The notes beneath the pieces were generated by a model. It searched no databases. It saw only the letters and a list, made by a program, of their open reading frames with translations, and was not told the DNA's origin. A stretch of 64,000 nucleotides of DNA from Somniosus microcephalus (lineage: Eukaryota): assembly GCA_052327205.1 (NCBI GenBank), contig CM126221.1, forward strand, positions 43,338,001-43,402,000, in the 5' to 3' direction. Shown here one piece after another: positions 481-32,888 of the stretch (position 1 is the stretch's first letter; every line of letters starts with the position of its first letter). Both the position numbers and the translations under genes were made by a program.

Positions 481-3454
481 TCCTATCACAAAAGTTGTAA
501 AAAGTACTGCACTGAAAACTGCTTGTTGAGAGAACCAGGCGTTAACAATCTGAGGGTTATATTTGTAATTCATTTTTACTATGATTAATATCAATGAATA
601 TTTTGTAATCTGAAGAATGCCTGTAGGATGTGTGCACAATAACAGAGCAAATGGTTTTCATCTGAAAATGACTGTGTAAGTGGTGCTTACTCCCATACAT
701 GTAAAGAACTGATTTTTGGGGGGGAAATTAACTGAAGGAACATTGATTGCTATTCACAAAGTTTAGTGAATAGAAACCACTGTGTGTTAATTTGCTGTTA
801 AAATGTTGTAGCTGCATTGACTGTGAACATTGAACATTTGTGTTCCCCCTTCCAAAGCTCTGCTTTGGAAAAAAAAAATGCTCAAAACCAAAGAAGCTTT
901 TGAGAAAATAAAGAATATATTGTGACTAATAATAATGCTATTTCAGGAACTCCAGTGAATACAAGCTATTATAGTAATCTGAGTTTCCATAGCACTTTCA
1001 CAAGCTTTTTGATCGTGCTGTAAAACAATACACCAGGGAATGTTTTCTTAAACTGGTGGGCTGATGGCCGTTTACCCTGTCCATTACTGTGGTTGTATCA
1101 CTGTGACTGGCTGAGAGCAGCAAAACAAGGAAACTAAGGGGGCAGGGATTGGAGAGGCACCCAGTACATGACAAAACAGAAAAGGAATTTCAAGTCTGAT
1201 TTAGTATTTCCGTAAGATTGTGCTGAAAAAGGCAAAAATCTTTTCCCCTAGAATGTCTTGCATTCCATTGGCTAATCTGGTGCTGAGGAGAAATGTTTTA
1301 CATTGCACAGGGTTTATTTTAGTTTTTAATTATAGGGGCTGCCTGTTTTGTTGAATTCAAGAGTCATCTTGTTAAATCAAGTGACATTAATTCTAGAATA
1401 TCCCAGATAAGCCAACGTAATTATTTTTTAGTGCGATTTATATAGCCGCTAAGAGTAGAATTTTGTAAATAAAAAAAGCTCTGTGGTCTACAAAGTTGGA
1501 AAATTAGTGAAGAGGTTTAAGATCAAGAATATTAAATACTTTGATTTTAGTTTGCTTTTGAAGTAAAAGCAAGCAGTATGTACCTTTTTTTAAATGCTAA
1601 ATTAAATTTGTGGTCTGCAATTTTCAAAGTAACTTTTAATTCTTAGATATATATTAGTGTTTTTATCCTAGATTAATGTTATTTTGATTTAGAGTAAGAG
1701 ACTGACTGCACAGAGCTGACAGAATATCCCATTTCTGAGACACTTTTTGTTAGGAAAATTGCAGAATAGTTCAACACGGTCAAAGTATTAATCTGGAGAT
1801 TTGAAGGCTTTGTTTTTAGGCTGCAGCACACTTTCCACAGTGTTAATGTCTCGTATGTAAACTACTGCACAAGCGGCAGACAAACGGCCACTAAAGAGTC
1901 GACTTTCTGAGAAGCAGCAGTTTGACCACATGGGGCTGAAACGTAAGAGGGGAAGGGGAGAGTGCACAAGGTCGAAACTTCAGCGGCATTCACAATGTTG
2001 CAGGACTGGCGGTGAAAATAGGATCACAACAGATGCTACTCAGAGAGTGTGTGTGTGTGAGAGCGAGCAAGCAGAAAAGGGCGTTTCTTTGTCTGTGCAG
2101 CAGGGAGACACTGAAGTCAGTAGAGGGAGAAAAAATGCAGTGGAAACCGTTTGCCTAGTGTACTGTTTAAGATCCCGTGGCAGTTAAACAATCGAGTAAA
2201 ATAAGTAAGTGTTTAAAACTCTTTTATAACCTCTATCTAAGTTCTGGAAAGTTGTCACGGCTGCTACGGGATTCTTTGTGGCTGTGAAAGCGTAACTGCA
2301 TCTAATTAGCCACAGAAGCTGACGTAGGCTATGGGATTAATCACAGCAACTTCAGATTGCCCATGAGCACGCCAGTCCTGCTAACTTTCTTTAAACAGCA
2401 CATGCTAAGGAAGGAACTGCCCTGGGAGAGGCTGATTTTTGGAAAGACTGGACAGAACGCAGAAGCTCACAGAACCCTTTTGTTCAAGAGTAAAAGTTTG
2501 CCTTGCAGAATGTGACAGCTGGATACAACGCTTTCAAGAACTGGGAAGAAAATTAACTTTGTCCTGCATCTCTTGTCTGGTTGCTACAGATCATAAACCA
2601 AGAGGAAGAAGAAAAGCTTTTTTGCCAACTGATGTGGGGGAAAATAACACTTGGACTGAAACAGGAATAGATAAATTAGCAAACCTTGCTGAATTAGGAG
2701 CTGACAACTCTAAACATCAGTGTGTTTCACGTTGGAGTTATTTTTGCTCTCAGTGCTCTTCAATAGATAAACAGTGTAAACTAGACACTGACTGGAATTA
2801 CAGAATCAGCCAGACTGGTTTACTAACATCAACCTGCAAGGAATTGATTTATAGGTAATAACCTAACATCATTTTTTAAAAATAATAAAAGAAACCTCAT
2901 CTGGAACGTTTTAGTCATTGTTCTGAAGTTGTGCAGTTTTTTAAAAATGCCATGATGTTGCTAAGAAAGGAAGCAGCTGAAGCGCCCCTGATTGAAGAAC
3001 TTCCTGTCTTTGAATCTGCCGGAATATCCGCCAAGAATCACTTTTCAAAAGAAAACATGTCGATTTTCAAGGACTGCCTCTCTTGCAGCAGCCGGGTACT
3101 TGGGCATTGTAGTTTGTGGTTAAAATGAAAGGAATTTACACAGAGTTGGACTACAGCATATGAAAGGCCTTATTCTTATCAGCCAAGATGCATATGAACA
3201 GAGAACCTGAATTGACTGCACAAATGTAGTTTTGGCTATTTTTCGTAGAAGTGATTTTACTGATCGGATGTGCTTCATTGATATGTGACAAGTGAGTAAT
3301 ACATGCTGTTGGAACATCTACACTTTAACGACTGTTGGTGAATTAATTAAAATTCACAAACAGATTTCTCTGTTGGATTTAAAGTGTAAGTCACTAACTG
3401 CTGAAAGTTAGATCAATTTTTCTTCTTGTGGATTTTTTAAATCACTGTGGAACT

Positions 3455-6400
3455 ATGGGGAAGCCACTCAGCAGGCCAGACTGTTTACGACGTAATAATC
3501 CTACCTGTTTAGGAAAAAGTGAAGAGGATGATATGTACATTGAAGATTGCTACATTCCACAAAGATCCATATATGACACTATGAGAATTAATGAACAGAT
3601 AGACCTTGGATCGAAGGCGAACCAGCCATCAAGAAATTTTGCTGATCACACACACTCACAAAGCCAGAGAGCTGTAGAGACTAGCACTTTATCAAGTAAT
3701 GGAACTCCCACTACATCCAGTGTATTTGAAACAAGAACTAGTTCTGAAAGTAAAAAATTAGATGAAAGAGTCATATTTGATGCATTAAAACTGAGCAGTG
3801 ATGTGATTCGGTCCTCTGGCCCACCAAAGAGGAGGCCTCATGCGGAGAGGAAAGAGAACGTAAACAGGAGATCATGGAAAGCTTTCCTGCCACCAAACTT
3901 CCCAGACTTCACAGAAAGAACTGAGATCCCAGCAAATGAGCCTGCAGGTAGTGCAAACTCAATTAAAGAGAAAAGACATTCTAGCCACTTGCCTGTTGAA
4001 TTACCTAATCTCGCTCCTGAAAAAGAATTGGCCATAGTTAAATCAACAATAGAAAATGAAAAAAAATCCACAGGAACCCTGGCATTTCAGCAAGGAGCAG
4101 AAAGCACATTGAAAGATGCGACAGTATTCTCTCAAAGTTCAGAAAGTGAATGTGCTCCATTGCTGGAGTACAAGGATGTACCGATGATGACGAGACATTT
4201 ACCGGAGAATCGTACATGTATATCTGCAACCTGGCCAAGAGCCTTCAGGGCCAAAGGGACATTAGATGATGCCTCATTTATGCATAGAAGAGCATATGAA
4301 ATAGCACAAGAAAGGAGAGCTATATATGCAGCATCAATTGAGTGTGGAGGTGTTTCAGATTTGGGTACAACCAAACTGGACACTGATATTGTATATAACA
4401 TGCAGGAGGTTACTGCTAAATTTGAAGACCAGGATTATGATGTGGAATTCAAAAGCCATGTAAATCCTGAGATAGAGGAGCAATGTGAAGATGAAGAAAT
4501 GCTGTTTGATTTGGAATTTCTTAGTGAAGAATCAGCACTTCAGCAGCTGGATGCTATAATCCTGGAAAGTACAGAGAGAGACACAGACTCGCTGTTACAA
4601 TTTGAACAAGAAGAGCAGAGATTGACTGAAAACAAAGAATATCTCAATGAAGAATCAGCACTTCAACAGCTAGGTGCTGCAATCACAGAGGAAGATACAG
4701 ACTCTCTATTAAGATTTGGAGAAGAGCAAATACTGATTGATAACAAAGAATTTGGTCAAAAATCAGCATTTCAACAACTAGATGCTGTAATGGAAACGAC
4801 AGAGGGAGATACTGACTCTCTGCTACAATTTGAAGAACAAGAGAGAAGCCTGATTGAAGACAGCGAAGTTCTTGATGAAGAATCAGCACTTCAGCAGCTA
4901 GATGCTGTAATCTTGGAAAGCACAGAGAGAGATACGGACTCGCTGCTACAGTTTGAAGAAGAGGAGCGGAGATTGACTGAAAATAAAGAATATCTCAGTG
5001 AAGAATCGGCACTTCAGCAGCTAGATGCTGTAATCTTGGAAAGCACAGAGAGAGATACGGACTCGCTGCTACAGTTTGAAGAAGAGGAGCGGAGATTGAC
5101 TGAAAACAAAGAATATCTCAGTGAAGAATCGGCACTTCAACAACTAGATGCTGCAATCATGGAAATCACAGAGGAACATACAGACTCTCTAAGATTTGAA
5201 GAAGAGCAAATACTGATTGATGACAAAGAACTTGGTCAGAAATCAGCATTTCAACAACTCGATACTGTAATGGAAACCACAGAGGGAGATACTGACTCTC
5301 TGCTACAAGTTGAAGAACAAGAGAGAAGCCTGATTGAAGACAGCAAAGTTCTTGATGAAGAATCAGCACTTCAGCAGCTAGATGCTGTAATTGTGGAAAG
5401 CACAGAAGGAGACACAGATTCTTTGTTACAGTTTGAAGAGGAAGAGAATCAATTAATGGAGGATGACAAAATAATGGAATCTGATGTGTTGACAGAAGGG
5501 GGAGAAAACTTTATAACTATTCAAAAATCAAGCGCTTCAGTTGAAGAGAGTTCAGAAGAAGAAGGGAAAATCATCGAAGAGTTAGAAAGTAGACCACAAA
5601 GCAATTCAAAAGGCACTGGGAGAATGACTGCAAGTGAACAGAAATCCGCTACTAACACAGATTGGAAAAATAACACGAATCAGAAAGAGTGCGCTTTTGA
5701 ATCTGATGTACAACAGTCAGATGCAGACATTGACACCACTGGACCAGAGGACGATGATGTATACCAGCAAGAGATTACAGCTGTGTCAAAAGAGGATTGT
5801 ACTATAAAATTCAGTCATGATGTCTGCAAGGAAATTGTGGTTGATGCAGAAGAGGTGCTAGTCGATTTAGATGAAAACTCTAATTGTGATAAAGAAATCG
5901 CTGTTGTGTTTGAGGCAGGGGCTACAGGTACTGAACCTGAAATCTTAATCAAGGAATGTGGAATGCATTACCCTGTCATTAAAAAAGATGGGCAACAAAG
6001 CTCTGTTCAGTTAGAAGAATATGAAACAATTGTTCAGTATCCTACAGCAGATTCATCTATACCATCAGGTTTAAATCTCACTTGCTGTGCTCAGGAAGTG
6101 GGAATGCCCGATGTGGAGGAGAACAAGGAAATGCGGGCAAACTCTCTGCAATTAAATAAACATAATATCATTATTGAATATCCTTCAAAGGACTCCACTG
6201 TCGCATCATGTCCAGATCTCTCATACTGTGCTCAGGAGGTGGCAACATTGCCCAATGTGGGGGAGACCAAGGATATGCAGGCAGCTTTTGTACAATTAGA
6301 AGAATGTGAAATGGCTGTTGAGCCTCCTACTACAAATTCTCCTTTAGAATCCAGTATAGAGATCTCTAACTATACTCGGGAAGTATTTCCTAGTGTGATT

Positions 6401-7162
6401 GGTGCAGGTTCTGATGTGGAGAAATTCCCCGGTGACTCTGATGAAGTGGAGCAGGACTTTCATTCAAATAGAGAGAGCAGTAAGCACATTGAATTTGAAG
6501 TACAGGAAACCAGCGTTCAATCAGAGCCATCGAACTTGGAGCTAGAACCTGATGCAACAGAGATGCAAATTCTTCGCACGGATGGTTGCACTGATATTCA
6601 GTTCAATGAGCAGAAAGATTTGATAGAACTGGATGCAGTAAAATGGTCAGAAATTCTAGAACCTGTTGCTTCGGACACAGTGGTCATACGGAGCTCAGAA
6701 CAACAGTTTGATGGTGATCCTTCAAAAATGGATTCTGAGTCCGATATGGTGGTTCAAAACATTAGATGTTACAATGAAGTACTGTTGACTGACATGGATA
6801 CTGAGCAGCTACTTGAAGCAATCAGGTTTCTCTTCCAATCTGACGAAGAAGTGGACACTATTGAAACAATTGTGACTGCACAAGCAGCTGGAGCTTTAAG
6901 TTGGGAAACTGACCTGAAGGCTGATGTGTGGGAAAATGTTTCTAGTTCATGCCTTGAGGATGAATTTATCGAAGCAGGGATGCTAGATTATTTATTTGAG
7001 TCAGAGATGAAGGAAGAATCCAGTGACTCCAATCCATGGGTATTGCCCTTGGAACCAGATCCAATTGATACAATTTTAGACACTGGTGGAGAGGACCTCG
7101 CTGTGGAACCAAATGAAGTTGATTTTTCTGTTTTAAGTGAAGTGTTGGATACAGATATTGAG
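3455..7162 (+). CDS. KIAA0754: KIAA0754-like giant exon: alternative first coding exon of MACF1 (or stand-alone ORF ending at 7189)
   Basis: Open frame 3428-7189 with first ATG at 3455. N-terminus MGKPLSRPDCLRRNNPTCLGK..YIEDCYIPQRSIYDTMRINEQID..KKLDERVIFDALKLSSDV..NVNRRSWKAFLPPNFPDF matches recalled human KIAA0754. In-frame donor GAG|GTATTT at 7162/7163. Confidence 0.88.
4523..5470 (+). repeat. Coding tandem repeat, 8 units of ~36-41 aa (EESALQQLDA..E.TE.DTDSLLQFEE)
   Basis: Visible in the translation; near-identical DNA units start at 4877 and 5000 (123-bp period). Confidence 0.95.
6001..6390 (+). repeat. Second, older coding repeat, ~3 units of ~48 aa (VQLEE.E.I.EYP..DS......L.YCAQEV)
   Basis: SVQLEEYETIVQYPTADSS..CAQEV / LQLNKHNIIIEYPSKDST..CAQEV / VQLEECEMAVEPPTTNS..YTREV. 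Confidence 0.75.
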
Positions 7163-7267
7163 GTATTTATGTTATTGCCTGATGCTTGAAAAGATTTATT
7201 TCCCTGGCAAATTTGGTGATGGGCATGACATGAAAACATATGAAATGACAGAGCGCACTGTGCCATG

Positions 7268-7273
7268 AATAAA
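7268..7273 (+). promoter_or_regulatory. Candidate intronic polyadenylation signal AATAAA
   Basis: AATAAA ~80 nt after the TGA at 7187-7189, followed by U-rich sequence; the AT-rich background makes chance occurrence possible. Confidence 0.35.
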
Positions 7274-9669
7274 TCAAAAATGTTAAACTTTTATTTTTGT
7301 TGCATATTCACATGCATCTATAATGTTTGTAACAGAGATTTAAGTAAAATGGTAAGTCACTCACATGACTAAAACTTAACTCATTGTTATAAGTCTTTTC
7401 CCTGGCCCACCCCCTCAAAAAAAGTCAGTTAAATAAATGCATTGTTCGTGAAATATAATGTGAACAGAGCAAAAGCTTTCCTCCAAGACCTGAGACTCCA
7501 GCAGCTGTATTGTTCTGACTCTGGCCTGGTGCTGCTCTAACTTGTTTAGATCAAGAATGTTGACGACCTAACCAGAGCGTCACATCCAGAATTTCAGAAA
7601 TATAACTTAACAAGTAAAAATAAAACTTGCACAGAAATGCAATATTGACTAACACTGATTATCTCTGACTGAAGGTGGTTAATATTTCAGTACTGAAATA
7701 AAGATCATTTAGATTGCTATTAGGTGTAGAATGATTTTGAATTCAGTAACTGGGCAACCTGCAAGTTCAGGTATCCGATTCCCAGTCAGACTGCTTTGGT
7801 TGGAATCTGTAAATAAACTGATATTCAAACTTTGCCACCCTTTTTAAATAAGTTTGGTTGGTTCTTGGGCTATTAAATGGAATACAAGTATAACTGGTTG
7901 TTACATAGTGGCATTGTTGGCTACTGTTCAAAAGTCTGTGGCCAAAGCCATCACCACATTATCTTGACAGAAGGGAATGTTTAAAATTCCAACAAATAAA
8001 ATTAAACACAAAAATAGTGCCTGTAAAAATGATACCTAGGTTAATGCTCAAATTTATATTCTAGCTAAAGTGAAAAAGGGGGAACCTTGGGTGATCTCCG
8101 ATCAGTACAGACAATGCATGTACGCTGAAAGCTTTAATGGAGGCAATATCAATGTATGAATATATTGCAGAAATGGCCACAAATGTGCATTACCACAGGC
8201 ATTGTAGTGGTCAGTTATTTCAACTTTTGGTTCAAAAAGAAAAGTTTATTCCATATAGCCTCACTGAGTCTCACTGCTGAATAATGCTTGGATCCAGACT
8301 ATTTGCACATGACTTACCTTCCTTAGAACAGCAAGCACCAAACAACTTCACCTAACCACTTTACATTTGAACCAACAAGTTCACTTATAGACACATGAGA
8401 ATTGAATCCACATATGTACAATCCTGGTATAATATTTTGGGGACACCATGTCAATTACCTTTTTGTATATTAGGATTTCCCTCATTACCACACATTGCAC
8501 ATTCCACGAGAGAGTGGGAAAATGGGTTGTTTTCCAATCTCTGTCAGTACTGTCATTTAATTAGACTACAAAATGTGAGAGAGAAGAGCTGTGTGACTGA
8601 CCATTCTTCTCACCTCCCTCAGCGGCCCAACTCAAAATCAAGAATTCACTATCCAGGGAACTGCCTTGGAGAAGTGACATCTATATTTTTCTTGATGCAG
8701 CATAACTGTACCTTCTTTTCAGTGCGTGTTAAACTTTTTCTATTTTTTATTCATGTATACATTTAAATATGTTCAGGACCTCTCCATATTGCCCATGAAT
8801 TGAGAATTCCTATTTCAAATTAATAGTAATTGGTGATTATTCCAATCTTTCTAGAAATTGAATGGTTATGGTCAATTGCTAGAAATTAGATCATATAATT
8901 ATATAGTTGCATTGAACTTAGTAACAAAATAGTTTACACTACCTGACAGCTTATCAAATTTGGGAAAGTTTTGATATTTTTACATTCTTGCGTAGTACTT
9001 ATTTCACTTTTTTTCAATTGTGTTTGTGTTATTTACATAAATGGGGTAATGCTTCGGAACGAGTACACTCAGCGATGTCATTGTGTTCGATTTTGTGAAA
9101 ATAGTTCCCCAGCTGAGCATGAACACCACTGAAAATTACACCTCTGGTGTTGACTAACTTTATTGCTTTAAAAGCATACATACTAATTTTTTGCCTGCAG
9201 CATAGAATTATGAATTATATAACTAGCAACCCATTTGAGTTCTGAATTAATCAGGAAATCCTTGCCTTGATCCGTTTCCAACAACTCCTTGCTGCCTGAC
9301 TACTTTGATTCTATAGATATTTTAATCTGAGAATACAGCTGCATGTTCATTGTTACAGACAAAAACATATCACAAGCCAGATCCTCCTTCATTGCTGACC
9401 TTGGTTAAAAGGATGTCATTAGGAACTGCCGCCAGCTTACTTTGTTTTGAATATTCTTAGCTGTCTTAATGCAATAACAGGACCCAGATCTCAACAATGA
9501 ACTCTGAATTATCTTATGTAATAACTTAGCCTAATGGGTTGAAACCAAAATCTGGTTATCTGATGTTGGACTTTAATGTGTGGATGCAGGCAGACATTAG
9601 TTTGACCAGAGTTTGACCGTTTTAAAAATTCTGGTCGTCTTATAAAAAGCTTTATGAAGTTTGTTTTTG

Positions 9670-9857
9670 TTCATTCGCCAGATGCAGGCGTAGGTGGTAA
9701 GGCTAGCATTTATTACCAATCCATAGTTGCCCTGAGAAGATGGTGGTAGGCTGCCTTCTTGAACCGCTGCAGACTGTTTGGTGAAGGTGTCCCCACAATG
9801 CTATTGGGTAGGGTGTTCCAGAATTTTGTCTCGGCAGCAATGAAGGAACAGCAATAT
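9670..9857 (-). mobile_element. 3' portion of an older LINE interrupted by an L2 insertion
   Basis: ...gaaggaacagcaatata resumes as ..ccaagtcaggatg at ~10933, as in a common shark LINE recalled from memory. Confidence 0.6.
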
Positions 9858-10932
9858 ACAATAACAGCAACTTGTATTTATATAGCGCCTTTAATGTAGT
9901 AAAACGCCCCAAGGCACTTCACAGGAGTATTATAAGACAAAAAAAATTTACACTGAGCCACGTATGGAGAAGTTAGGGCAGATGACCAAAAGCTTGGTCA
10001 AAGAGAGAGGTTTTAAGGAGCGTCTTAAAGGAGGAAAGAGAGGTGGAGGAGTTTAGGCAGGGAATTTCAGAGCTTGGGGCCTAGGCAACAGAAGGCACGG
10101 TCACCAATGGTTGAGCAATTATGATCAGGGATGCTCAAGAGGGCAGAATTAGAGGAGCGCAGATATCTCGGTGGGTTGGGGGGACCGGTTGTGGGACAGA
10201 AGGAAATTACAGAGATAGGGAGGGGCGAGGCCATGGAGGGATTTGAAAACCAGGATGAGAATTTTGAAATTGAGGCATTGCTTAACCGGGAGCCAATGTA
10301 GGTCAGCGAGCACAGGGGTGATGGGTGAATGGGACTTGGTGCGAGTTAGGACACGGGCAGCTGAGTTTTGGATGACCTCAAGTTTACGTAGGGTAGAATG
10401 TGGGAGGCCAGCCAGGAGTGCGTTGGAATAGTCAAGTCTAGAGGTAGCAAAGGCATGGGTGAGGGCTTCAGCAGCGGATGAGCTGAGGCAAGGGTGTAGA
10501 CAGGCGATGTTACGGAGGTGGAAATAAGCTGTTTTCGTTATGCCGCGGTTATGTGGTAGGAAGCTCATTTCCGGGTCAAATATGACACCAAGGTTGCGAA
10601 CAGTGTGGTTCAGCCTCAAACAGATGTTCGGGAGAGGGATGGAGTCGGTGGCTAGGGAATGGAGTTTGTGGCGGGGACCGAAAACAATGGCTTCCGTCTT
10701 CCCAATATTTAATTGGAGAAAATTTCTGCTCATCCAGAACTGGATGTCAGACAAGCAGTCTAACAATTTAGGGACCATGGAGGGGTCGAGCGAAGTGGTG
10801 AGGTAGAGCTAGGTGTCGTCAGCGTACACGTGGAAACTGATGTTGTGTTTTCGGATGATGTTGCCAAGGGGCAGCATGTAGATGAGAAATAGGAGGGGGC
10901 CAAGGATAGATCCTTGGGGGACACCAGAGGTA
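9858..10932 (-). mobile_element. L2-clade LINE, 5'-truncated
   Basis: ORF 10149-10778(-) WMSRNFLQLNIGKTEAIVFG..SRLDYSNALLAGLP..LHWLPV; typical L2 3' tail (caacttgtatttatatagcgccttt) at ~9860-9900. Confidence 0.92.
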
Positions 10933-11430
10933 ACGTCCAAGTCAGGATGATGTACAACTTGGAAGTGATGATGTTCCCATGCACTTGCTGCCTTTGTCCT
11001 TCTAGTTGGTGGAGTTCATGAGTTTGGGAGGTGCTGTCAAAGAAGTCTTGGCATGTTGCTACAGTGTAGATAGTGCACACTACTGCCACTGTACACTGGT
11101 GGTGGATGGGATGGATGTTTAGGCTAGTGAATGAGGTGCTGATCAAGCAGACTGCTTTGTCCTGGATGGTGTCGAACTTCTTGAGTATTGTAGCAGTTGC
11201 ACTCATCCAGGCAAGTGGAGAGTATTCCATCACACTCCTGACTTGTGCCTTTTTGGTGGTCAGGCGGTGAGCCATTCGCTGCAGAATACCCATCCTCTGA
11301 CCTGTAGCAGCCACAGCATTTTGTGTGGCTGGTCAAGTTGATTTTCTGATCAGTGATGACCCCCCGAGGATGTTGGTGGGGGACTCGACAATGATAATTC
11401 CATTGAATGTCATGGGGGATGTGCTTACAC
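10933..11430 (-). mobile_element. Remainder of the older LINE (RT C-terminal region)
   Basis: Minus translation KAQVRSVMEYSPLAWMSA...KFDTIQDKAVCLI. Confidence 0.75.
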
Positions 11431-12210
11431 TCTCTCTTGTTAGCACTTTAGAACCTTGCAAAACGGATTTTTATTGTTTAAAAGTTACAACAGGCGTGCA
11501 TCCTGTTACTCAGCAGGCTGCTGTCTGGGCACCAACATCAATGATGTAACATCTCAAACCACAGTGATTCACTGCCCAAACAGGAAGTTCCCAATAGCCC
11601 ATCCGTTTTAAGGTTTGGGAGGAGAAACACTTCTCAACAGTTGTTACACCTCCAATGGATAGGGGTTAGAATTTTGCAGAAACCTTAACTCCTCGATGTA
11701 TTTCTTTTTCTCCTTTCCATCTTTAGGTTCCATAGTTTTCCTCTTGCTAATACATTAGTTTGTTTGGGATGGTGTGGGCCGTGAAATTAATCCTCCCTGC
11801 TGGGACACTCCATTCCTTAACCGCTTTAATACTCAAAGGATATTTCCAATTAACTCGATTATCATTCACATGGCATAGAATTTTTTTTCTTTTCTATCAT
11901 AAGCTGCACTATGTACATTAGAACTATCTACATTGCATGAAAAGTGTCTGCTTGAAATCAGATTTCCTGGCATTCAAAAGTTGTACTTATTAACAGAGAT
12001 TTTATTTTTTGCCGTTTGCAGGTAAGTAATTACATTGTTAGCTGAGCCCATGGGCTTCGACTTCCCTTCTGCTTTTTGCATTCAAAATGTACTGCGTTTA
12101 CTACTGTGAAAGCTGTTGAAACATTTTCTGGTGTTGGTCATTTACATGGTCAAGCACAGTTTTACACAAACACTTTAGGTCAAGATACTTTCTTGGTTCT
12201 CTAAAAACAA

Positions 12211-12370
12211 TGGGGTATAAATACGTCTTGGAGGGTAACACAAAACGGGTCATAGCGAATCGGCAACCCATTTTTCACTGCCGGAATTTTTTTTCAAATG
12301 AGTTATTTGGAAAATGATTTGCTGATTCGCTGTTGCCCTTTTTGCGCTACTCCCCAAGTCAAATTTAGAA
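12211..12370. mobile_element. Degenerate palindromic MITE-like element (Harbinger-type ends)
   Basis: Imperfect inverted arms: caaaacgggtcatagcgaatcggca ... tgctgattcgctgttgccctttttg. Confidence 0.4.
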
Positions 12371-14053
12371 AGTAGCGTTTTGTCAATAACCTAAACCTTC
12401 TCTGCTCTGTTTCCTCAATGTGGAGTGGGGAAATCATCTCAATGCCTGGGCTCAAATATATGGAATCCATGGGTGTTGGCTTGGCACATCAAACAGCTAG
12501 AATTAAAAGCTGTTTCTGAGCAGTCATAGATGAAGTTGCTAACAAGTTGGTCTGTCTTTGGGCAGAGGGTAAAAAAAAAACTGATTTGGTATTAATCAAT
12601 GTGAAACTCATTCTTGGACTCAGTTTTTCTGATGCTTTGCAAATCAGTCTGTGGTGCCATGTAACACAACAGTTCGGGAAGATTCACAATCCTGTTAAAC
12701 CACTGCATGTTCACACAAATTGACTTTCCACTTAATGTTTACAAATTCTCTATCTCTGCAGTGGGATTATCTAAAAATGGAACAATTGGTAATTTTGTAA
12801 ATGCACATCATGGTCCGTTCTACTTCTGGGCCTAGAATTGCACAATCCACTGTCAAACATTCTGTCTCGTGGAGTAGTCATTTCATTTATGTCTTTCCTC
12901 TATTCCATGGTATCCTGAGAGTGCTCCGAAACAAAGAGTCAACCTGATGAGTGTTTTTAAACTACTTGTTTTATCTGAGGGAAGTATGGTTTCATGTGCA
13001 ATTGACCCAAAACCACTACTTCAGCAGGAACCCTCTTGGAACAGTTGGGTATCTGTATATGTTTCTTCCTCTCATTCCCAGGACCATGCAAATGAATTCT
13101 GTGCTTGAGGAAATGTTGCCCGATTTTTGTACCCAACTTGCCATCTCTCAAAATTAAATTCCACTGAGAGAATTGGACCAAACCAGGAAGTTAACTTTTG
13201 GGCGAACCAATGACTTAATTTTCCTTACTAAATGAGTGGTAGAATTTATTTACTGTGTTACAAATAAACAAGCAAGGGATCTTCTAGAAGAGCTGATGTT
13301 AGTTCAAGTAGAATCTTGAGCAAATATCAAGAATTGCTTTAGATGGTGCCTGTAAATAACTACCTAACACAATCTTCATAATGTTACCAAAGACTACGGT
13401 TTGGATTTTCCCATTAAAAAGATGGTGTAAAATATAAGTGACTATGCTCCTTTGATTCCCTGTCCACTAAACCTGTAGTATGTAGCGAATAGCATAACTT
13501 AAAAGTTGAAGGAAACACTAGAAGTAGGTATTTGTATCTATTTGAGTATATTCAGACATAAGGTTATGGAAGAATGTCCTTTATTGACATTCAGTAGTGT
13601 CCTTTTAATTGTCTCCATCCAATGATGGCGAGTACTCGGATGTTTTTTGTGTTTAGGTTGAAGTGTGCTCTGAGTTCCGACATTCTCGGGACTCTGGAGG
13701 TAGTTTTGTTTTGTATAATCTATGTTGTCATCTTTGGCTTGCTCTTCATCTTTGATAACAATTCTGGTAAAATGCATACAGACCTTTTAATATAAACAAT
13801 ACCCCGTTCTGTACCTTCAGGCTGTTTTTATGTTTTGTACCTTAGACCTTAACTTTCATCTGTACTACATTCCAAGACGTGTATTTGTGTACATAATAAG
13901 TGATTTTAATTTTGTATTGACTTAGTACGGGCACACACCATAAATCTCCCATCCCTATAGGAAATAGAATTATTTGTATAATATTTCCAAGGTGGGTGTT
14001 TGTGATCAGTATTATAGACTTACTTGTTTCTCATTCTTCTTCTTTCATTTTAG

Positions 14054-14215
14054 ACATTCCAGAAAGTTCAGGTGGATCCTATCCAGTACAAACTTCAGCA
14101 GGCCAATGGGGTGGGACAGGGTCTTATTCAGAGTGCCGCGAAGAATTCCAACACCCAAGGACTTGAACATGATCTGGATGAGACGAACACCAGATGGAAC
14201 ACGCTCAACAAAAAG
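14054..14215 (+). CDS. MACF1: MACF1 spectrin-repeat exon ([16 protein letters not shown]...WNTLNKK)
   Basis: tttag| ... AAG|gtcag, 162 nt, phase 0-0. Confidence 0.93.
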
Positions 14216-18198: not shown

Positions 18199-18308
18199 AG
18201 GTCAGATAGTCTTTAATATTCTCCTTACAATGCTTGTATATGGGGAGGGGAATCCTAAATTAGAATTGTTAAGATCATATTGTGTAATAAGAATTTTTTT
18301 TTTCCCAG

Positions 18309-18479
18309 GTGGCAGAACGTATATCCCAGTTGCAGGAAGCGCTGTTGCATCGTGGAAAATTCCAGGATGCTTTGGAGCCTTTGTTGAGCTGGCTTACGGA
18401 TACTGAAGAACTGATTGCCAATCAGAAACCTCCATCAGCAGAATACAAAGTGGTGAAGGCTCAAATTCAGGAACAGAAG
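18309..18479 (+). CDS. MACF1: MACF1 exon ([29 protein letters not shown]...IQEQK)
   Basis: cccag| ... AAG|gtatt, 171 nt, phase 0-0. Confidence 0.95.
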
Positions 18480-20499
18480 GTATTTTACGCTGTCTGAGAG
18501 CAGCAATAGATGTGGATTTTTTTTCAATAGATGGGCTAGACTAATGGCAGTTTTTATTTTAATAGCCATATACTAAACAAGGGGTAAAATTTGCAGCACG
18601 GAACAAACTTTTAGAATGCCATGCTGCATTTTTCATTTCCAGAGTATGGGCTACAAAGAGACATTTGTTCCATGTGCAGAGATGAACAAATGGCCATCCA
18701 CTGAATCTATGCCAAGTCTGAATAGCTAAAATCACTATTCTTCTCTCCAGCTCATTGGAAAAATAAAACTTGTCTCAGTGCCAGATTTCTATCTTTTCTT
18801 AAAGGGCACTGTCCTCATGAAAAAGTGTTCGGCAAACTTTTTTTTAACAGATATACAATGTGATGGCTTAAATTGCATTAAAATGCATCTCGTGTTACTA
18901 GTATATAATGTGACCATGAGGAAAGTGACGCATGATTCATGTGCTTCTCATACCCCAAAGAAAATGGGACTTGCCAAACATTCTTTCATGAAAGCAGTGG
19001 CTTTTTTTTTTAAATAGACCATACAAATTGACTTGAACTAAAATTTGATCTAATTTAAAATTTGTCATATCCGAGTGGCACAAGAAAATGTGTTAACTGA
19101 AGAGCTGTGTAAGTGGAACAGAAGAGTTTTAAGTAGGATTTGATTCATTTAAGTAACTGACAAGTATAATTTGTTTACTGACATGATTTGCCTACAACAA
19201 AGTCTCAATTCCCATGCAGTTCCATGAACTGTTTGCCATTTTGGACTGCGTACTGCAATTTCTCATTAATGAATGCTGCCTTGATGTTGCTGTTGCAGTA
19301 ACGACTGTGAACCTCAAGTAGTTTCAGTGAAATTATCTCTTGGATTAGTGAATACCAGTGACATTTTTATACTCCCCTACATGCTTCTCAGAGCTTTTAG
19401 TCTTTTCCCCACTCTGAATAACATAAGCAATTCTGTTTTTATTGGCCTTTCAAGAATATGTATTTTGTGAAGCAATTTTACATTTTGATTGAATGACGCT
19501 TGCAGGAGGAGTAAATTGACACATGCAGATTTCTTAGCATGGTTGTGCTTGTGTTGATTTTAATGCTTGAAGGAATTTGTTTTTAATTCCTGAGTTCATA
19601 TTGGTCAAGGCAGCACTAGTCCCATTATTTTGGGCCACTGTTCTTTGCTGCTAATAGAAGGATTATGATTGCTAGTTTATTTTCCCTTCTGTGGTTCAGG
19701 AGTTTGGACATTTAATGTACAATTTTTATGTACCTTACATCAACATAAACTGTTGAAGGAATAGGGTGAATAATCCATTTATCAAGCTAGCATCATCTAT
19801 TTATCTAAGACAGGTGAAATATACAATGTATTCTCAAACCCATTCAGTCCACAACTCTTCGGCCTAGAAATTCGGTTGGTAGCGCCAGCGATTAGCGCCT
19901 AAAGAGCCCGAGAATTGGGGCGTTACCCAATTTTCAGGCGGGCGCAGTGAATATAGCGCCACCTCCCATATTGAGTATCCTTTTAGCGCCGGCGCTAACT
20001 CTTTGCACACAACGCGGGCGCAGGCAGATCATGACGTCATTTCAGTGTGCAACGCCTTTTTGGCGCCCCGGACCGGATATTCGGTGGCGCCCGCAACCTT
20101 TCCGCCTGGCGCTATTAGTGACAGCTGGATGGAGCGTTCCCAGGCCCTTCTCGGACTCTTGGGGCGCTATTTAAAGGGGACAGCACTAGTATAAAAGCTG
20201 CAGCCATTTGGGCTGGCCATTCTGATTGTTGCTGGAGAGAGTTGCTGACCTTCTGTTGGACAGTACTTTTCTCATTGAGCCTTTGGAGGCACTGGCACTG
20301 GCCGCTTGAGGGCCCGGCTCCCGAGCTGGTGATGCAGCATCTGAAAGCAGGGAGGTGGAAGAGTGGCTTTAGCAAAAGGACAGCTTGGCAGCAAGGGATG
20401 CCAGATTGCGGCAAGGCTATGACATGGGTCCACAGTGAGAAAGCATGCTGGCGGGGGGAACAAGTGGAAAGAGACAGTTGTAAAAGGTGAGAACCTTAC

Positions 20500-20662
20500 C
20501 ATCGCTGTCGACAATGGGGTCGGCAGCTGCAGTGGTTACAGGACCACTCGGACGTCCTCCAAGAATCTGGTGGACTCTCTCCTTGAGATCCGTGAGAGTG
20601 ACCACTTGTGGAGGTCCTCCACCGGTGCGAAGCTGGTCTTTGCCAATCTTCGCCAGCTTGGA
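20500..20662 (-). CDS. Harbinger Myb/SANT-like protein, exon 2
   Basis: Acceptor tttcccctgcag|, in-frame SKLAKIGKDQLRTGGGPPQVVTLTDLKERVHQILG (TGGGP motif typical of this family), donor |gtaagg. Confidence 0.65.
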
Positions 20663-20892
20663 CTGCAGGGGAAAGGAGGGGAAATTATGTTACCTGATGC
20701 CCTGAGTGATCATCTCATGCCCCCCATGGTGCAAGAGCCCTTACATGACGCCTTGAGTCAAATGTGCATGTGTGTGTCCAGAAAGGGCCATGGATGCTTG
20801 CTGGCAGATGGCCAATGGGGCACAGGCCACCCTGTAGCCATAAAGTCAGGTGCAAATGAAGGGATGCAGAAGTTTGCAGAAACAACACCCAC

Positions 20893-21129
20893 CCTCACGA
20901 CCCGAGTGAGGTCGTTGAATTTCTTTCTGCATTGGACAGGGCTCCTGGTCACCATGCTGCTGGAGTTGACCCTCTGGCATACATCCCTCCAAGCTCGTCG
21001 GTAGTCCTTATGATTCGGCCTCCTGCCATTGTCTGGGTCGAGAACATCTCGCCGGCGCTCCACTGCGGCCACCAATTGCTCTAGAGCCTCATTGGTGAAG
21101 CGCTCTGCTCTCTGTCTCACCTTCTCCAT
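20893..21129 (-). CDS. Harbinger Myb/SANT-like DNA-binding protein, exon 1 (probably a remnant)
   Basis: MEKVRQRAERFTNEALEQLVAAVERRRDVL..RRAWRDVCQRVNSSSMVTRSPVQCRKKFNDLTRVVR, then donor |gtgggt. Confidence 0.75.
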
Positions 21130-22665
21130 CTGGTCCAAGTTTTTAGCGCCAGAGAAGGGCCTGCGCCGATTCTGAGGCCTGCAAGGCGCAGAGTGTGGAT
21201 GCTGAAGCTGCCTGACCCACCCCTTTAAGAGCTGGCCGGCGCCTGGAAGTCTCGTGGTCATCGGCAATTGAGAGCACCTGCGCTGCGCCCGTCCGCTCCG
21301 ATATTTGGGTTGCGCCGGAAGTTTAGCGCCTTAGGAGTCCCGTGTAACGCCTGAATTCGCGCCTCAATCACCTTTAGGGGCGATGCAACCCAATATCGCG
21401 CCAGGTGGCGATAAGTTGCGTCTGGCTATAAACTTTGCGCTGCGCCAATTCTAACGCCCAAGCGGGGCTATACCCAATTCCTAGGCCTTCATGTTTTAAC
21501 AAAAACACTCAAAACATAATATTGTTTAGGCTATCATCATAAGATGTGTTTTACAGTGGCTTGACAGTGGGGTTAATGTGATTTAGATAGTATCCTTGTA
21601 TTATATGAATGAGTTCTAAAGTTATTTTGTGAATTCTGCAATTTTACTTTGGTTTTATATTGTTTTCAACTGTAATACTTCATATTGCCTGCCCCTTTTA
21701 TAGTGCGGTTTAATTTGTGGATTATAGTAGAGTTAACAGCATTCAGTAACAAAATGAACGAACACATTAAAACTACTGAACCTTTTAGGTTTGGGGTGCA
21801 ATGTGAAAGACTTTTCTGGCCCTCCTGTAAACCTTGCTTGAAGCCTTTGTTTCACTGTGTGAAAAGAGTGACTGATCTGCATTGTACTTGAAAGGGCAGA
21901 GGTGTGTTTATGGATGTCTTTGGAGTTGAAGCAGCGTGGTTCCAAGAAGGTTAGACTATGGAGTATTCTGCAGGTACTGGAATCGGCCCAGCTGGATGAA
22001 GTTGAATTTATCTGCTCGTTGCTGGAAATACACAACCTTGTATGTGTGAAAAAGCTGGCTACCCTGGCGATGCCCTAAAACAGGGTCACATCGGTCTGTG
22101 GTAAGCAGACCTGGGACCTCGCTGTTCCATCAGACCGGGGTGAATGGCTGACCAACTCAATGGGGTCTACAACAGGGAGCAGATCTCCCTCCAGGCTGAT
22201 GGTGTTGGCAAAGCTTCCAACTCCTTCTGGCCTCTTCTGGGAGGTGTGTTGTACTTGACGATATTCTTTTCCCCCATGCCCCCATTGCATGGAAGAGCAC
22301 ATGGCAGGTCGTGCAGCTGTGTTGGAGAGTCAGGGAAGGGAGAAGTAACTGTTTTGGTTTATTGTTTCATTATATTATTATGGGATGGAAAATCTGTTAC
22401 AGACTAAGTAATTTATTTTTCCTTAAAATATACAAGCATTCAATACAAACCAGAACAGAATAGCTGAACATATGGGAAATGTTTCTGTAGGATCTTGTGA
22501 AGAATATGGCAAGTATAAAGGGTTTAAAGAAAGCTGGTACTTATACAGCCTCTCAGGGCAGTTAATTTGCAGCATTGTTCCACAGAAAAAAGCGAGATTT
22601 AAATCTGAAGCCACTTGGCAACTGTTGATTCATTTGTGCTTTAAAAAAAAATGTTTTTTGCCCAG

Positions 22666-22832
22666 CTCTTGCAAAGACTACTGGATGATCGCAAATCCAC
22701 AGTGGAGATTATTAAGGCAGAAGGAGAGCGGATTGCAGAGTCGGCAGAAACAGCTGAAAAGGAAAAGATCCAGAAACAACTGCAGTGTCTGGGGGAGAGA
22801 TGGGACGGTTTGCTCAGCAAGGCTGGGGCAAG
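22666..22832 (+). CDS. MACF1: MACF1 exon ([16 protein letters not shown]...LLSKAGAR)
   Basis: cccag| ... AG|gtaca, 167 nt, phase 0-2. Confidence 0.95.
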
Positions 22833-24961
22833 GTACAAGGTCTTTCCATACTCACGTGGGGAGAGACAAATCATGTTTTTGCTGTGTATATCAATCAAAG
22901 TGTTTTTAAAACAACTTTGTAGAAACATTCTTCACTTTTCCAGAATTGAAAGTTCCCACCATAGCCATCCTTAGTCATGGAGAGTTTGAAGTCAAAACTG
23001 AGTGCAGATTACACATTGTAGCTTTCATTTAATGAATTCTGGCTACTTGACTTAGAGTGTAATGATGTTGTAATTGCTAAGCTTCATATCCGTATCATGG
23101 AAAGAAAAAACAAACAACATTAAAATCAGTTGAGCACAATTTTCATTTTAATGTTTTTAAAATTATTAGATTTCATTGTGCAAGTGAAATGTAAAAGTGG
23201 AAAGTTTGAAAGCAGGAACTGTTTTCAAACTGTTGCTTTTATTAATTTCACACATGTGAAAGGTACAGAAAATGCATAAAAAGCAAAAATAAAGTTGCTG
23301 CATCTGAATTCAGCAAAACCTTGGCATATATTTACTTTGCAAACATTCACATGAGCACTGTACATGAACTAATGGTGAGATTTTACTGCACATAGTCAAT
23401 GTGGAGTAAAGTTTTTATTGTGATGGCTGTTGGGCTTGTAAACACTTGACTGCATTACCGTTGTAGTAACTTTAGAAAACATGTGCATGTGCAGCTGTGT
23501 AGAGGATCACTGTCAGCTGGCTTTATAACAACTTAAAGCAGACCCAGGTTAATAGTTTTACTCCATTTTAGGTCTATAGGCCCATACATGTCAATGCACT
23601 GTGTGTTCAAGTGTGTAGGCATTAGAAAGAATACCAAACACCCCAACAGCTTCTACTGAAAAGAGCACACTAGCGCACAACCAGTTCCTCATTCCTATTT
23701 GAAAATTCTATTTCAAATACTAGGTATAAGCATTAGATTTGGTATGAATCTAAATACAAATCCATTAAAAAACACACAGCTATATAGGCATTTGCAAAGT
23801 GATATGTCTACACAGATGTACACATTTTGTACGCATTCATACAACCTTCAACTTCCATCATAGTGGATGTGTGCAGCTGCTAATGACTACAGAGGAGGGT
23901 AGATTTATGAGATTTATGACTTCCTTTCCCCTGTAGTTGAGTGAATTCTTCTGAATCCATGGTTGTGTAGTGAGGGGTGTTGTATATTTGATTCCTGGCA
24001 GTACTAGTGCTAGATGTGCATCTGAATCACTGGCAACTTAGTGGGAGAGAGTGTCTTCCAAATGTTCCTGCAGAGGCTTTTCTCTGCTTAGTAACTAAAG
24101 TTGTTAAATTTGAGCATTAGAATTGTGTACCATGCTAACCCAAAGTCTGCATTTATCCAAATGCTTGCCCTTAAAAGTTAAGAGAACTTAACAAAGTGTT
24201 AACCATACAGCGTGTTTCCTAAAGATGGATAATACAACAGTTATAATGTTTACTAAAGATTGACTTTTTTTATTCATTAAAAAATTAGAAGCTCTCTTTA
24301 GAAAATACTCCAAATCCACTTCCAAAACTGCTATCTGTCTTAAGATGTCTTATCAGTGTCTCAGATGATTAAGCATTGTAGAATACCACAAATTTGCAAC
24401 AAGAAAAAGGGAGAATACATTTCTTTATTTGCCCAGATGATATTGATAACTTGAAAATATTCCAAATATGTGACTGAGCACAGTACAGTACTACTCTCGG
24501 GAATAAAAGTTATCAGTAAATGTAACCTTTTCCACTCAAAAGATTTAAGTCTCAGCAGCCAATGCGGATGATCATTTGCACGGTCATTTAATCTGTTATT
24601 TGTCAGTTTGTCCCAGTCAGATATTCACACTGACTGCCTATTGCACTATGTCTAATGTCATCGTGCACATGCCTTTGTAGCACATGTTGATGTATTTGTG
24701 CATAGTGTCTAGTTTATGTGCCCACAGCTCCATCAGTTAGGTTAGATTGTTAAAGTTAAAACTGCACTTGAGTGAGCTAACAACTTGTTTGTTCTGTCTA
24801 AACTGGGATATATTAAATGGAGTATTAAGATTTTATTTCATGGAAAACAGTTATCCTGGATGATTTATGATGCTGTTTGTATAAGTGTTTACACTGCAAT
24901 AATACTTAAGCAGATGGGGACCATGTGTTTCATCACAATGTCTTGCTTTGTGTTGATGCAG

Positions 24962-25121
24962 GCAGAGGCAGTTAGAGGACATTTTAGTCATTGCAAAACA
25001 GTTCCATGAGACCGTAGAGCCCCTGAATGAGTGGTTGACCAGCAGGGAGAAAAAATTGGCCAACTCTGAACCTGTAGGAACTCAAACTGCTAAAATCCAG
25101 CAGCAAATTACACGCCATAAG
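24962..25121 (+). CDS. MACF1: MACF1 exon ([25 protein letters not shown]...ITRHK)
   Basis: tgcag| ... AAG|gtaag, 160 nt, phase 2-0. Confidence 0.95.
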
Positions 25122-27632
25122 GTAAGTGGCAGCATTTCCAAGGTATAACTTCATATGTCACATTGGAGTGGGTTAGCTGTAAATAAATGACATGTTGTAA
25201 CAATATTAGATTGTTTCAACTCTGTTTTCTTACTATCATAGTACTTTAAAAAAATGCATAAGTTTCACATATTCCTATGTTACAAAATGCTTCAGAATAA
25301 CTCCTAACTTTGTTCTACTGAAGTCATTTATGGACTATTTTTAATTCCAAACTATCCTCACTGTGCAGCTCCTTCACCATATAAAAACAAAAGAGCAGCA
25401 ATCTTTTCGGAAAGGAAATTGAATGCACCATGTACCCTGAGTATAAAATAACCAATGGTCTGGATTTACAGAAATGTACAAGATTCCACATTGGTTTTGG
25501 ATAAATGCAATATTGGGATGAAAATCCAGCACAACCATCTTTCTGCCCCTCCCCCGTCCACCATAACAAAGCTTGCCAAATGCAGTGATGTGTGCAAAAA
25601 AAACAAGCTTCCCTTTGTTTGCGCGTAGAAGAGCTCGGCCTTTTTTTTTATTTCTATTTTTTAAATGAATGACATGGAAACACTAGAAAGAGAAGATAAG
25701 CTGGGAGTAAGCCAGGTTTTCACAATGCCATTGAGCTGAAGGAAGAAATACTACTTTTGTTGGGGACAGGCCAGGATCTGGTTTGTTGGTTTGAACTAAA
25801 ATCGGATCTAATTGGATTTATCCCTAGCAAGAACCTTTTGTGTAGGCATGTGCCTGTATCACTCATGCACATTCTTACCCAAACTATCTTAGGACTGCAA
25901 GTGCCTTCATATTCATATAAACCAGCTGCTGTCATATCTTGTCTCACAACCCCTTTGGTGCTAACATCTTAAATGGAAGTGGCGTACGTTTGCCCACTAT
26001 TACAAGGAAATAATATTAGGATTTTCTAATGTTTTATTGCAAGAATCATTGGTTTTATGTTCAATTAAGAAACAATTGTAAATGTGCCTATTAAAAAATA
26101 ATTTTTAACTGTTTGTAACTTTTAATGAAGCTCTTTCACCCCCACCCTACCTAGCTCTAGATGAGTGTTGGGCTCCACTCGGAGGCTCATGAAATTTTCC
26201 CCTTTTTATATTGCTAGTTTTCTCCCCTCTTTTACTGTAAGCATTGAGTTTTCGCTGGCATAAGGTTCCACAGGCACCTTTTCAAAGCCTCACCCAAGTG
26301 GCCTTTATTCTTGTGTTAGTGTTGACAGTAAGTTTCAGCAGGCTATTTTACCATGGTGGCACCACAATCAAGGCCATCCTGTCCGTGCCCAACATCCATG
26401 CATGTGAACTTCAAACAAGATTCACAATCAGAAGATTTCCTTCTGCCTGAACCAAGGGCCCGATTGCTGTCTGAGCTGAGATTAGCTAACTTCTGGCATA
26501 AAACCTAGGACCTTCCTGGTTTGTATGGCACATCCATTCACTGGACAAACCAGCTCATTGGGGAGCCAGTTTGAAAATGTAGTTGCATTCTTAATTATTC
26601 CAACTTTGCTGTGCTAATTGATTGCAGTCGGACAAAGAGATGGAGTGCTGGTCAGCAGCGGTGATGAGCTTTATTTTGCAAAATAGGGATAACTTTTGAA
26701 GATCAGTCATCTGTGGTTTCTCACCACGTGTTGGCTATTAATGAGCAACATCCTTGGGAGAGTTAGTGACATTCACAGCTCAGAGTTGTCTCTACCACAT
26801 TAAGGATAAACAATAATGGTGGAAGGCAGCCCTGAGAGACACAGAAGTATGAATAAACTTTTAGTGGAGTCTGGGTAGAGCATTTGTTTACACACTGTTT
26901 CACCTTTAGAACATAGGTTGAAATCCTGCCCAAATTAATGGAATGAAAGTCTCCTGTCTCTAGTTATAAAGAATCTGTGTGCAATATGTTGGCCAATTTC
27001 AACTCTTCTTAGTGATTATGGAATCGGTTGTAGAAATGTTACATACAGAAAGCAGTATCAAAGTGTTAAGACATTTTATGCATTACTAGATTGGGAAGAA
27101 TTAGCTTTGCAGATGTTTGCTTTCTTGCACTAAGACAGCTCCATTTATTATTCTGTTTGCTTTGAGCTTCAAAAGCATTTTAGACTTTTCTTTGAAGTTA
27201 CATCAAGATTTCTTTTTTGTTCTGGCCTGTTTGTCAAAATTTTTGCTCCAGACTGTGTTTAAGCTACATTCCTTTGGCAAACTGGCTATCAGTTTGGAAA
27301 AGAACTAAGTATATATTTGGATTAAAATGACCATTGCAAATTTATAGCCAAATGTTTTCTGCACTAGATCCAGTGTGAATGGTATATGATCTAGATTAAA
27401 AATGCCTCCAATTCCTCCTTGGTGTTTTTCCTCCCCTTTTTGCAACACCTTGGAAAGTTTTGCTATGTTAAAGGTGCAATATAAGTGCAAGTTTATGTTG
27501 AAGTTTACAGGAGTTTATTTTGATGCAGGCCTACCATATAACGCATTGGTTCCTTTTTCCTCTGTGCTTTTTGTTGAAATTTTTCAATTCATAATTCTGT
27601 TTCTTTATGCTATAATTTTATCCTTGGTTCAG

Positions 27633-27959
27633 GCCTTGGAGGACGACATCACAAACCAAAGCCAGAACATGCAACAGGCAGTCAGTGTCGGCCAGTTTCT
27701 CATGACGTTGAGCGCAAAACCTGACCAGGAGATGGTAGAGGATAAATTGGAGTCTATCCAGACTCAGTATAGGGAGATTAGGGACAGGTGTAGCCGAAAG
27801 GCAGCCCTGCTCCAGCAAGCCCTTGCCAATGCCAAGATCTTTGGAGAGGAGGAGGTGGAGGTGTTGAATTGGCTGGCTGACGTTCAGGACAAACTCAGTC
27901 TGGTGACCATCAAAGATTACAAATCTGACATCCTGCATAAACAACACAAAGAGCAGCTG
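27633..27959 (+). CDS. MACF1: MACF1 exon, 109 aa (ALEDDITNQSQ...HKEQL), probable cassette exon
   Basis: ttcag| ... CTG|gtatt, 327 nt, phase 0-0. Confidence 0.92.
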
Positions 27960-29221: not shown

Positions 29222-29306
29222 GCTCTGAATGATGACATTATATCCCGGAAGAAGAATGTAGATCAAGCCATTAAAAATGGGCAGGCCCTTCTTAAACAAA
29301 CTACAG
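29222..29306 (+). CDS. MACF1: MACF1 exon (ALNDDIISRKKNVDQAIKNGQALLKQTTG)
   Basis: tgtag| ... CAG|gtaac, 85 nt, phase 0-1; too short for the ORF track. Confidence 0.95.
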
Positions 29307-32300: not shown

Positions 32301-32479
32301 ATTTAGATGTCTGTTTCATCCATTAGAGTATTGACAGTGTGATTAGTATTAAGACTGAGTTAGCATTAACAATGATGAATCTTTAAAAGTATTTTGTTCA
32401 GTTCATTGAATATTAACATATTCCTATTTCTTTGTGTGTAACTACCCAATATTTTGTTCACTGATATTTGTTTCCTCAG

Positions 32480-32721: not shown

Positions 32722-32888
32722 GTAAGCAGAGCAGTCAGACATTCAGAATCGGTGTAAGTGAGCTCTCGGAGGAAGGAAAATGGGATAATATATCCACACT
32801 CTCTTGTTCTTGTAATCTGACATGTTCAATTAAATACTACAATCTGTTTTGCTTAACTGAATATTAAACTCATATGCTTAATATTCAG

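Follow-up and report, generated by a model that had tools for sequence, protein, structure and literature searches.

A shark KIAA0754 ortholog as a likely internal first exon of MACF1 with a conserved, predicted acylated N-terminus

The human and mouse exon that databases name both KIAA0754 and 'MACF1, isoforms 6/7' is the closest described relative of the element discussed here, a giant exon in the MACF1 gene of the shark Somniosus microcephalus. The exon lies in a stretch of 64,000 nucleotides (contig CM126221.1, positions 43,338,001 to 43,402,000, forward strand), which we call the window and from whose first letter positions are counted. We believe that this exon is orthologous to KIAA0754 and likely serves MACF1 as an internal first exon, giving rise to a spectraplakin of about 3,500 residues without actin-binding and plakin domains that is predicted to be acylated and to tether membrane to microtubules, a reading to which we assign a probability of roughly 0.55. 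Human and mouse KIAA0754 share with the shark exon an N-terminal module, a phase-0 donor after a Glu codon, the same acceptor exon, an acidic linker with a repeat expansion of its own, and records of both spliced and read-through forms. Past residue ~180-290 the linker cannot be aligned with bony vertebrates, the repeat unit being 41 residues long and acidic in the shark and short and made of Pro, Ala and Glu in human.

Internal first exons that lead into a spectrin rod are known from another gene family. The short dystrophin isoforms Dp260 to Dp71 start from internal promoters and, like the giant-exon form, lose the N-terminal actin-binding part and keep the C-terminus, but their unique N-termini have few residues, in contrast to a head of 400-1400 residues with a conserved module. 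Nearer relatives are found in the spectraplakins themselves, where MACF1c, MACF1-4, MACF1a3 and dystonin type-3 are described, in the accessible parts of the sources, as products of alternative promoters whose actin-binding domain is partial or absent (PMC8012552, PMC4914211, bioRxiv 10.1101/122010), and where potential myristoylation or palmitoylation sites are reported in some other dystonin lead sequences (bioRxiv 122010, in the part available). Six MACF1 isoforms are listed in the available text of PMC8012552, PMC4914211 and PMC12918444, none of them like the giant-exon form, and all six keep the plakin domain according to the first of these, whereas the giant-exon form starts ~138 kb downstream of the plakin SH3 domain and is without a plakin domain. 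An 'additional exon conserved between dystonin and MACF1', possibly with an isoform or alternative start of its own, is mentioned in the legend of Fig. 1 of the review by Voelzmann et al. 2017 (bioRxiv 10.1101/122010) and is very probably the giant head exon; that legend, as available, is a single line that gives no motif, age or function. In the literature searched, which left out most subscription papers, we found no functional study of KIAA0754/MACF1, no acylation-type start and no evolutionary dating, and nothing that joins KIAA0754 to myristoylation.

The open reading frame (ORF) in question runs from stop to stop over 3398-7189 (+ strand, 1263 codons). Its ATG stands at 3455, 19 codons downstream of an in-frame TAA (3395..3397), and the coding part of the exon (3455..7162, + strand) consists of 3708 nucleotides, or 1236 stop-free codons, ending at the phase-0 donor GAG/GTATTT (7162/7163), as the first-pass annotation of this DNA had read it. 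Past the donor GTATTT the frame continues through a 9-codon read-through tail to a TGA at 7187-7189 (7163..7189, + strand), such that the unspliced form would be a stand-alone protein of 1244 residues. Usage of the donor is inferred from the comparison of orthologs and from contig ends.

The acceptor proposed for this donor, TTTCATTTTAG/ACA at 14053/14054, is pyrimidine-rich and in phase 0 and is followed by 54 codons up to AAG/GTCAGT at 14215; this first common MACF1 spectrin exon (14054..14215, + strand) starts in the middle of a repeat, and its phase-0 opening had also been read correctly. It serves as acceptor for the canonical upstream exon too, a 1.5-kb exon that is the nearest rod exon on the 5' side and whose phase-0 donor (G000:C20:43317131) is 34.9 kb away, and we found no other rod exon in the intron between the two. 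The intron that holds the giant exon is thus the one preceding the xFQKEQVDP exon. Across the window, from 14054 to 63585, a marsupial MACF1 short form can be matched one exon after another, including ~21 further spectrin-rod exons (18306..63585, + strand) that are collinear with its residues 1186-2557 according to tblastn, with approximate bounds. A tree of the rod, built on 109 columns after the junction from two-exon pieces that miss two residues at the inner boundary, places the window inside the MACF1 clade (95/91), which agrees with the host gene proposed in the first-pass annotation.

That annotation had also held that the head replaces the CH and plakin domains and keeps the rod and presumably the microtubule-binding end. 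A plakin SH3 domain lies 138 kb upstream of the giant exon (C20:43203622, + strand) and a GAR domain (PF02187) 94 kb downstream (C20:43435294-43435413, + strand), all on the same strand, and because of this arrangement a transcript starting at the giant exon would be without the plakin domain and could retain GAR; the loss of the CH domains follows from known gene order, in which they stand 5' of the plakin domain. The claim holds to this extent, with the CH part resting on gene order. Compared with the classical isoforms (MACF1a/b/c, -4), the form shares the spectrin rod and differs in the plakin domain, which lies upstream in the gene and is listed for none of the fused homologs. The junction lies within a spectrin repeat: from residue 4 onwards, the exon of DST (dystonin) that corresponds to the acceptor exon aligns to positions 47-94 of the 105 in Pfam Spectrin (a weak match, E 0.01), and Pfam missed three of five half-repeat exon pieces. 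The marsupial record has 1870 residues up to the EF-hands and 15 Pfam spectrin matches, and EF-hands are seen in fused homologs. Adding its 2258 post-junction residues to the head gives our estimate of ~3,500 residues for the shark short form.

The most conserved part of the head is its very beginning, M1-G2-K3-P4-L5-S6-R7-P8-D9-C10...C18 (3455..3508, + strand), a predicted N-myristoylation and S-acylation signal. The core motif is held by 255 of 271 stored proteins, a count inflated by the homolog set, which has redundant members and was built from sequences that resemble this N-terminus. Among these, 251 of 255 carry MGKPLS[RK]PxC, at residue 1 in 231 of the 251 records and with a second Cys at positions 11-24 in every one of them; the remaining 4 of 255 are truncated or otherwise started. 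M1-S6, P8, C10 and C18 are invariant in an 11-row alignment that includes DST and hagfish. The giant-exon N-terminus has Gly2, Ser6, a basic residue 7 and Cys within 20 residues, features that fit the consensus of N-myristoyltransferase (NMT) in the first three and the usual layout of dual acylation in the pairing of Gly2 with a nearby Cys. This fit, that layout and the acceptance of Lys3 lead us to favour a lipid-anchored tether. NMT accepts Lys3 after Gly2 in some twelve human substrates, Arf6 and hippocalcin among them, according to the available part of PMC7048800, while the accessible part of PMC4550359 holds nothing on position rules.

Beyond the motif, a conserved module spans residues 1-160 (3455..3934, + strand), in which a largely disordered chain carries four short blocks of conserved sequence; the module is common to MACF1, DST and hagfish. 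Past the N-terminus the 11-row alignment gives the blocks YxPQRSIYDT, LDE..IFD.LKL and RRSW. Over residues 1-177 the shark protein is 64.8% identical to human record KAI2516368.1 (E 7.6e-65) and the matches of the similarity search carry the name KIAA0754 homolog, which bears out the orthology that had been proposed. Alignment to bony vertebrates is confined to the first ~160-290 residues (52% over 286 residues to coelacanth), and over its full length the head can be aligned only to another shark-like protein (53%). The AlphaFold model of the module (mean predicted local distance difference test, pLDDT, 53.6; predicted template modelling score, pTM, 0.19), which is too poor for a fold search, has short helices at 39-50, 104-115 and 141-144. 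A search of the ESM Atlas with the module gave no usable match, and a PDB profile search gave none.

The remainder of the head is of a different kind. Whole-head composition is 23.5% Asp plus Glu with a net charge of -190, yet residues 1-160 are near neutral (net +2) and residues 351-670 are 31% acidic. An in-frame tandem array of a 123-nucleotide unit in 7.8 copies (4519..5447, + strand) encodes an acidic repeat of ~41 residues, with 8 copies in the window's head versus 2 motif copies in the other shark-like protein; we regard it as a lineage-specific expansion of the linker. Judged from these comparisons, the acidic bulk of the head appears to be a fast-evolving linker and the first ~150 residues the conserved element. 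The '1236-aa acidic head' of the first-pass annotation is acidic overall, but most of it is variable linker, in part tandem repeat. Pfam matches to the head, namely HopA1 (E 5.9e-06, no passing stretch), DUF7900 and HNF_C (both below cut-off), touch its acidic part only and were set aside as composition noise. Within the linker the motif TWPR (residues 259-262, 4229..4240, + strand) is retained in heads of the MACF1 type, shark through human; it occurs in 5/5 other MACF1-type heads and 0/2 DST-type heads and is not in hagfish. TWPR, peculiar to the MACF1 type, and RRSW (3866-3880), present in all heads, resemble what we take to be sites for basophilic kinases or 14-3-3 proteins.

Only two matches to the module are found in the shark genome, the giant exon and a copy at G000:C9:38397131-38397577, which is 60% identical to the window module and lies within a 431-codon ORF. 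This second copy sits in a dystonin-type gene, with an SH3 domain upstream and a GAR domain downstream, in a 36.6-kb intron 3' of the orthologous big exon with its phase-0 donor and 5' of the orthologous phase-0 acceptor. Its nearest named relative is a whale shark sequence. In a tree of heads, MACF1-type and DST-type sequences split (92/90; DST clade 95/93) with the window on the MACF1 side, and the second copy falls on the DST side in both head and rod trees. Since the head tree splits as the rod tree does, the head exon would have been duplicated along with the gene. All 65 of 65 long module proteins are fused to spectrin repeats, most also to EF-hand and GAS2; those with names are MACF1 or dystonin, and their listed families include neither CH nor plakin. 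The rod is joined at the identical place in MACF1 and DST records, xFQKEQVDP or xFQKEEIEP, such that the synteny of the two genes agrees in intron and junction alike. The short DST form (UniRef 'Dystonin'; 2690 residues in Logan) resembles the MACF1 form in module, intron, junction and C-terminal domains and differs from it in a head of 367-447 residues in fused records that is less acidic and without TWPR.

The shared intron, the shared mid-repeat junction and the matching trees argue that the exon is older than the MACF1/DST duplication and was probably retained by both genes. Furthermore, hagfish record A0A8C4R8G0 has the module, a head of 607 residues, the same junction and 10 spectrin matches, and implies that the exon may have originated before the split of jawed and jawless vertebrates. 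A date in the jawed-vertebrate ancestor, as first suggested, thus appears too young. No invertebrate match was recognised among 48 representatives (17 of them looked up by source) in a single-sequence search, which is not sensitive, and a profile search with the module gave 354 matches, of which the best 120 are considered here. The shark DST head ORF (L002, G000:C9:38396282-38397577, - strand) stops at codon 432 and offers candidate phase-0 donors after 1203 and 1260 nucleotides; the DST-type head record of the whale shark is annotated as a stand-alone protein of 430 residues. A divergent head type occurs in teleost records P0100, P0103, P0105, P0106, P0112 and P0113, with an MGKPLSRPGC start, a Cys-Cys pair, a His-rich insert in several and no spectrin fused in the records seen, and is possibly a second teleost macf1 copy.

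Evidence of transcription comes from four runs of relatives that were mapped on 5500-14400. In X23, stranded raw reads of a close relative, five of five bins of 5500-6984 are covered in sense only at a depth of 2.9-7.1, compared with 0-1.4 in the non-repeat bins of the intron. A contig of X1 aligns over 5500-7160 and then departs from the intron sequence for 30 letters, and a second X1 contig starts at 14052; that X1 and X2 are RNA is a guess. AG is the last dinucleotide of giant exon, canonical upstream exon and intron alike, for which reason breaks of a 31-mer graph are expected at 7160/14052 if 7162 is joined to 14054, and we infer that the contig ends fit this joint to the base. Database records point the same way. 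Human and ape MACF1 records divide into spliced ...NSDE/MFQKEQ versus read-through ...NSDE/VIV, the split between spliced and read-through records falls at E/V in primates, birds and snakes, and rodent and bird records also diverge at Q/V and K/V. The read-through ends of the shark-like protein (...DE/VFIFLSDA) and of the window (...IE/VFMLLPDA) are alike in place. For DST, 81 Logan contigs carry the form of 2690 residues that extends from MGKPLS as far as the C-terminus; they are spliced RNA, since each is at most 9.9 kb long.

Several observations weigh against our reading, in respect of the transcript as well as of the anchor. As to the transcript, none of the four runs is from this species, and no RNA holder on record is listed for the stretch; X22 covers one of five exon bins; and the 7162-14054 joint is absent from the rows listed, where fragments of long interspersed nuclear elements (LINEs) at 9.7-11.4 kb swamp the tables of joints and loose ends. 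The donor is of middling strength, fifth among GT sites in 3455-7400 and third among phase-0 ones by a rough weight matrix, a GT is missing from the shark DST exon at the tetrapod splice position, the hagfish sequence comes from a gene model and forms a long branch, and many records consist solely of the unspliced stand-alone protein. One may ask whether the main product is the single-exon KIAA0754 protein of 1244 residues, which ends 9 codons past the donor, with splicing to the rod a minor event. Most records named 'KIAA0754 homolog', and mouse NP_001161390/'isoform 7' too, hold the read-through form, a shark-like read-through ORF of 1208 residues is on 6.7-kb Logan contigs, and the low read depth of X23 persists past the donor. 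However, the tails behind the donor show no relation to one another in either length or sequence, yet the phase-0 donor is kept, the spliced DST form has its 81 contigs, and the X1 contig departs from the genome at the donor, all of which makes a mainly stand-alone product rather improbable in our estimate. It is more improbable still, and in our estimate very unlikely, that the giant exon is an internal cassette of full-length MACF1. A phase-0 AG at 3462-3463 behind a pyrimidine run could serve such a cassette, and MGKPLS occurs at residue 3943 in one pigeon model of DST, 6623 residues long, but that AG would delete the invariant M1-G2-K3 and has no equivalent in DST, and those AGs that stand between in-frame stop and ATG (3406-7, 3410-11) do not agree in phase with the upstream donor, which is phase-0.

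In respect of the anchor, the inflated homolog count has to be borne in mind, and no support was found in the literature for tolerance of Pro at position 4 by NMT. Neither the supplement of the HeLa myristoylome (PMC4200515), which has MACF1 only as a caspase-generated site, nor the six supplements of a neuronal acylation paper (PMC12316903) have an entry for KIAA0754/GKPLSR, absences that are limited in that expression of the head in these samples is not established. The same absences favour a head that acts as a protein-binding module in the same short isoform, with Gly2 kept for docking or N-terminal processing. Conservation reaches well past what NMT reads, into YxPQRSIYDT, LDE..IFD.LKL and RRSW, and the blocks are modelled as short helices in a disordered chain; these blocks beyond residue 20 would point to a protein partner as well. 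Against this stand the position of the motif at residue 1 in most motif records and the combination of Gly2, Ser6 and basic residue 7 with two near Cys, the established layout of dual acylation. Binding without a lipid anchor is in our view an unlikely explanation, if the strongest of the competing ones, and the two readings of the head are compatible with each other.

If the acylated tether is real, the giant exon would be driven by its own promoter, and after removal of Met the new protein would be myristoylated at Gly2 and S-acylated at Cys10 and Cys18. Three short conserved helical motifs would bind a partner, and the disordered acidic spacer, ~280 residues in DST and 850-1100 in MACF1, would set the reach. 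The rod would open with a partial repeat, followed by ~17 spectrin repeats, and these, together with EF-hands, GAR and tail, would bind microtubules as in the long isoforms, leaving the N-terminus at the membrane, the C-terminus on the microtubule and a rod of half length between them.

Further features of the window concern the surroundings of the exon. CpG content rises at 1800-2210 (+ strand; observed/expected ratio 0.61, GC 0.47), a stretch that ends at a donor-like TAA/GTAAGT (2204/2205) and could be a non-coding first exon, or else the start lies at most 150 nucleotides from the ATG; 12 ATGs lie within 600 nucleotides 5' of 3455. A CpG-richer stretch is also found 0.8-2 kb 5' of the DST ATG, and blastn gave no similarity between the non-coding DNA 5' of the MACF1 and DST ATGs. 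In the intron, 2 kb 5' of the 14054 acceptor, a pyrimidine tract ending in CAG and followed by GTAAGT (11999-12030, + strand) may be either a ratchet or recursive-splice-like site or the donor of a small exon. It is the only CAG/GTAAGT-type site in the 34.9-kb intron, versus 0.04 expected from block shuffles at a threshold set post hoc; none is found in the DST intron, and low-depth unspliced contigs span the site. Downstream, a reverse-transcriptase-like LINE ORF (15039-18212, - strand) adjoins a 2-kb GC-rich simple tandem array with several long frames, further LINE pieces lie at 1-530 and 9700-11450, and an intronic short-unit tandem array at 58687-60147 has several low-complexity open frames on the - strand.

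Both the exon and the fact that DST shares it are already on record, and the shark exon by itself is another ortholog of an annotated but unstudied kind of isoform. An N-terminus that has barely changed between two paralogs and hagfish speaks for strong selection, and the function is open to direct testing through this invariant start, the copy in hagfish and the mid-repeat junction, which is identical. We tentatively propose, at somewhat less than even odds, that the two spectraplakin genes of vertebrates each encode a class of isoform that has been overlooked and that predates the split of jawed and jawless vertebrates, a lipid-anchored and actin-independent tether from membrane to microtubule made from an internal promoter. 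The actin-binding domain of Drosophila Shot interacts intramolecularly with the EF-hand-GAS2 region (PMC3771950, in the part available), and the giant-exon form, being without that domain, would escape control of this type. If the proposal is true, such a class would be free of autoinhibition by the actin-binding domain and no MACF1 or DST allele 5' of the junction would affect it, which could account for part of the way in which 5' alleles differ from 3' ones in dystonia musculorum, type VI of the hereditary sensory and autonomic neuropathies (HSAN-VI) and MACF1 disorders. For example, a Dst gene trap lies in the actin-binding domain and a Dst-b stop before the spectrin repeats (legend in PMC9365387); both are upstream of the junction, and the short form would stay intact in either case.

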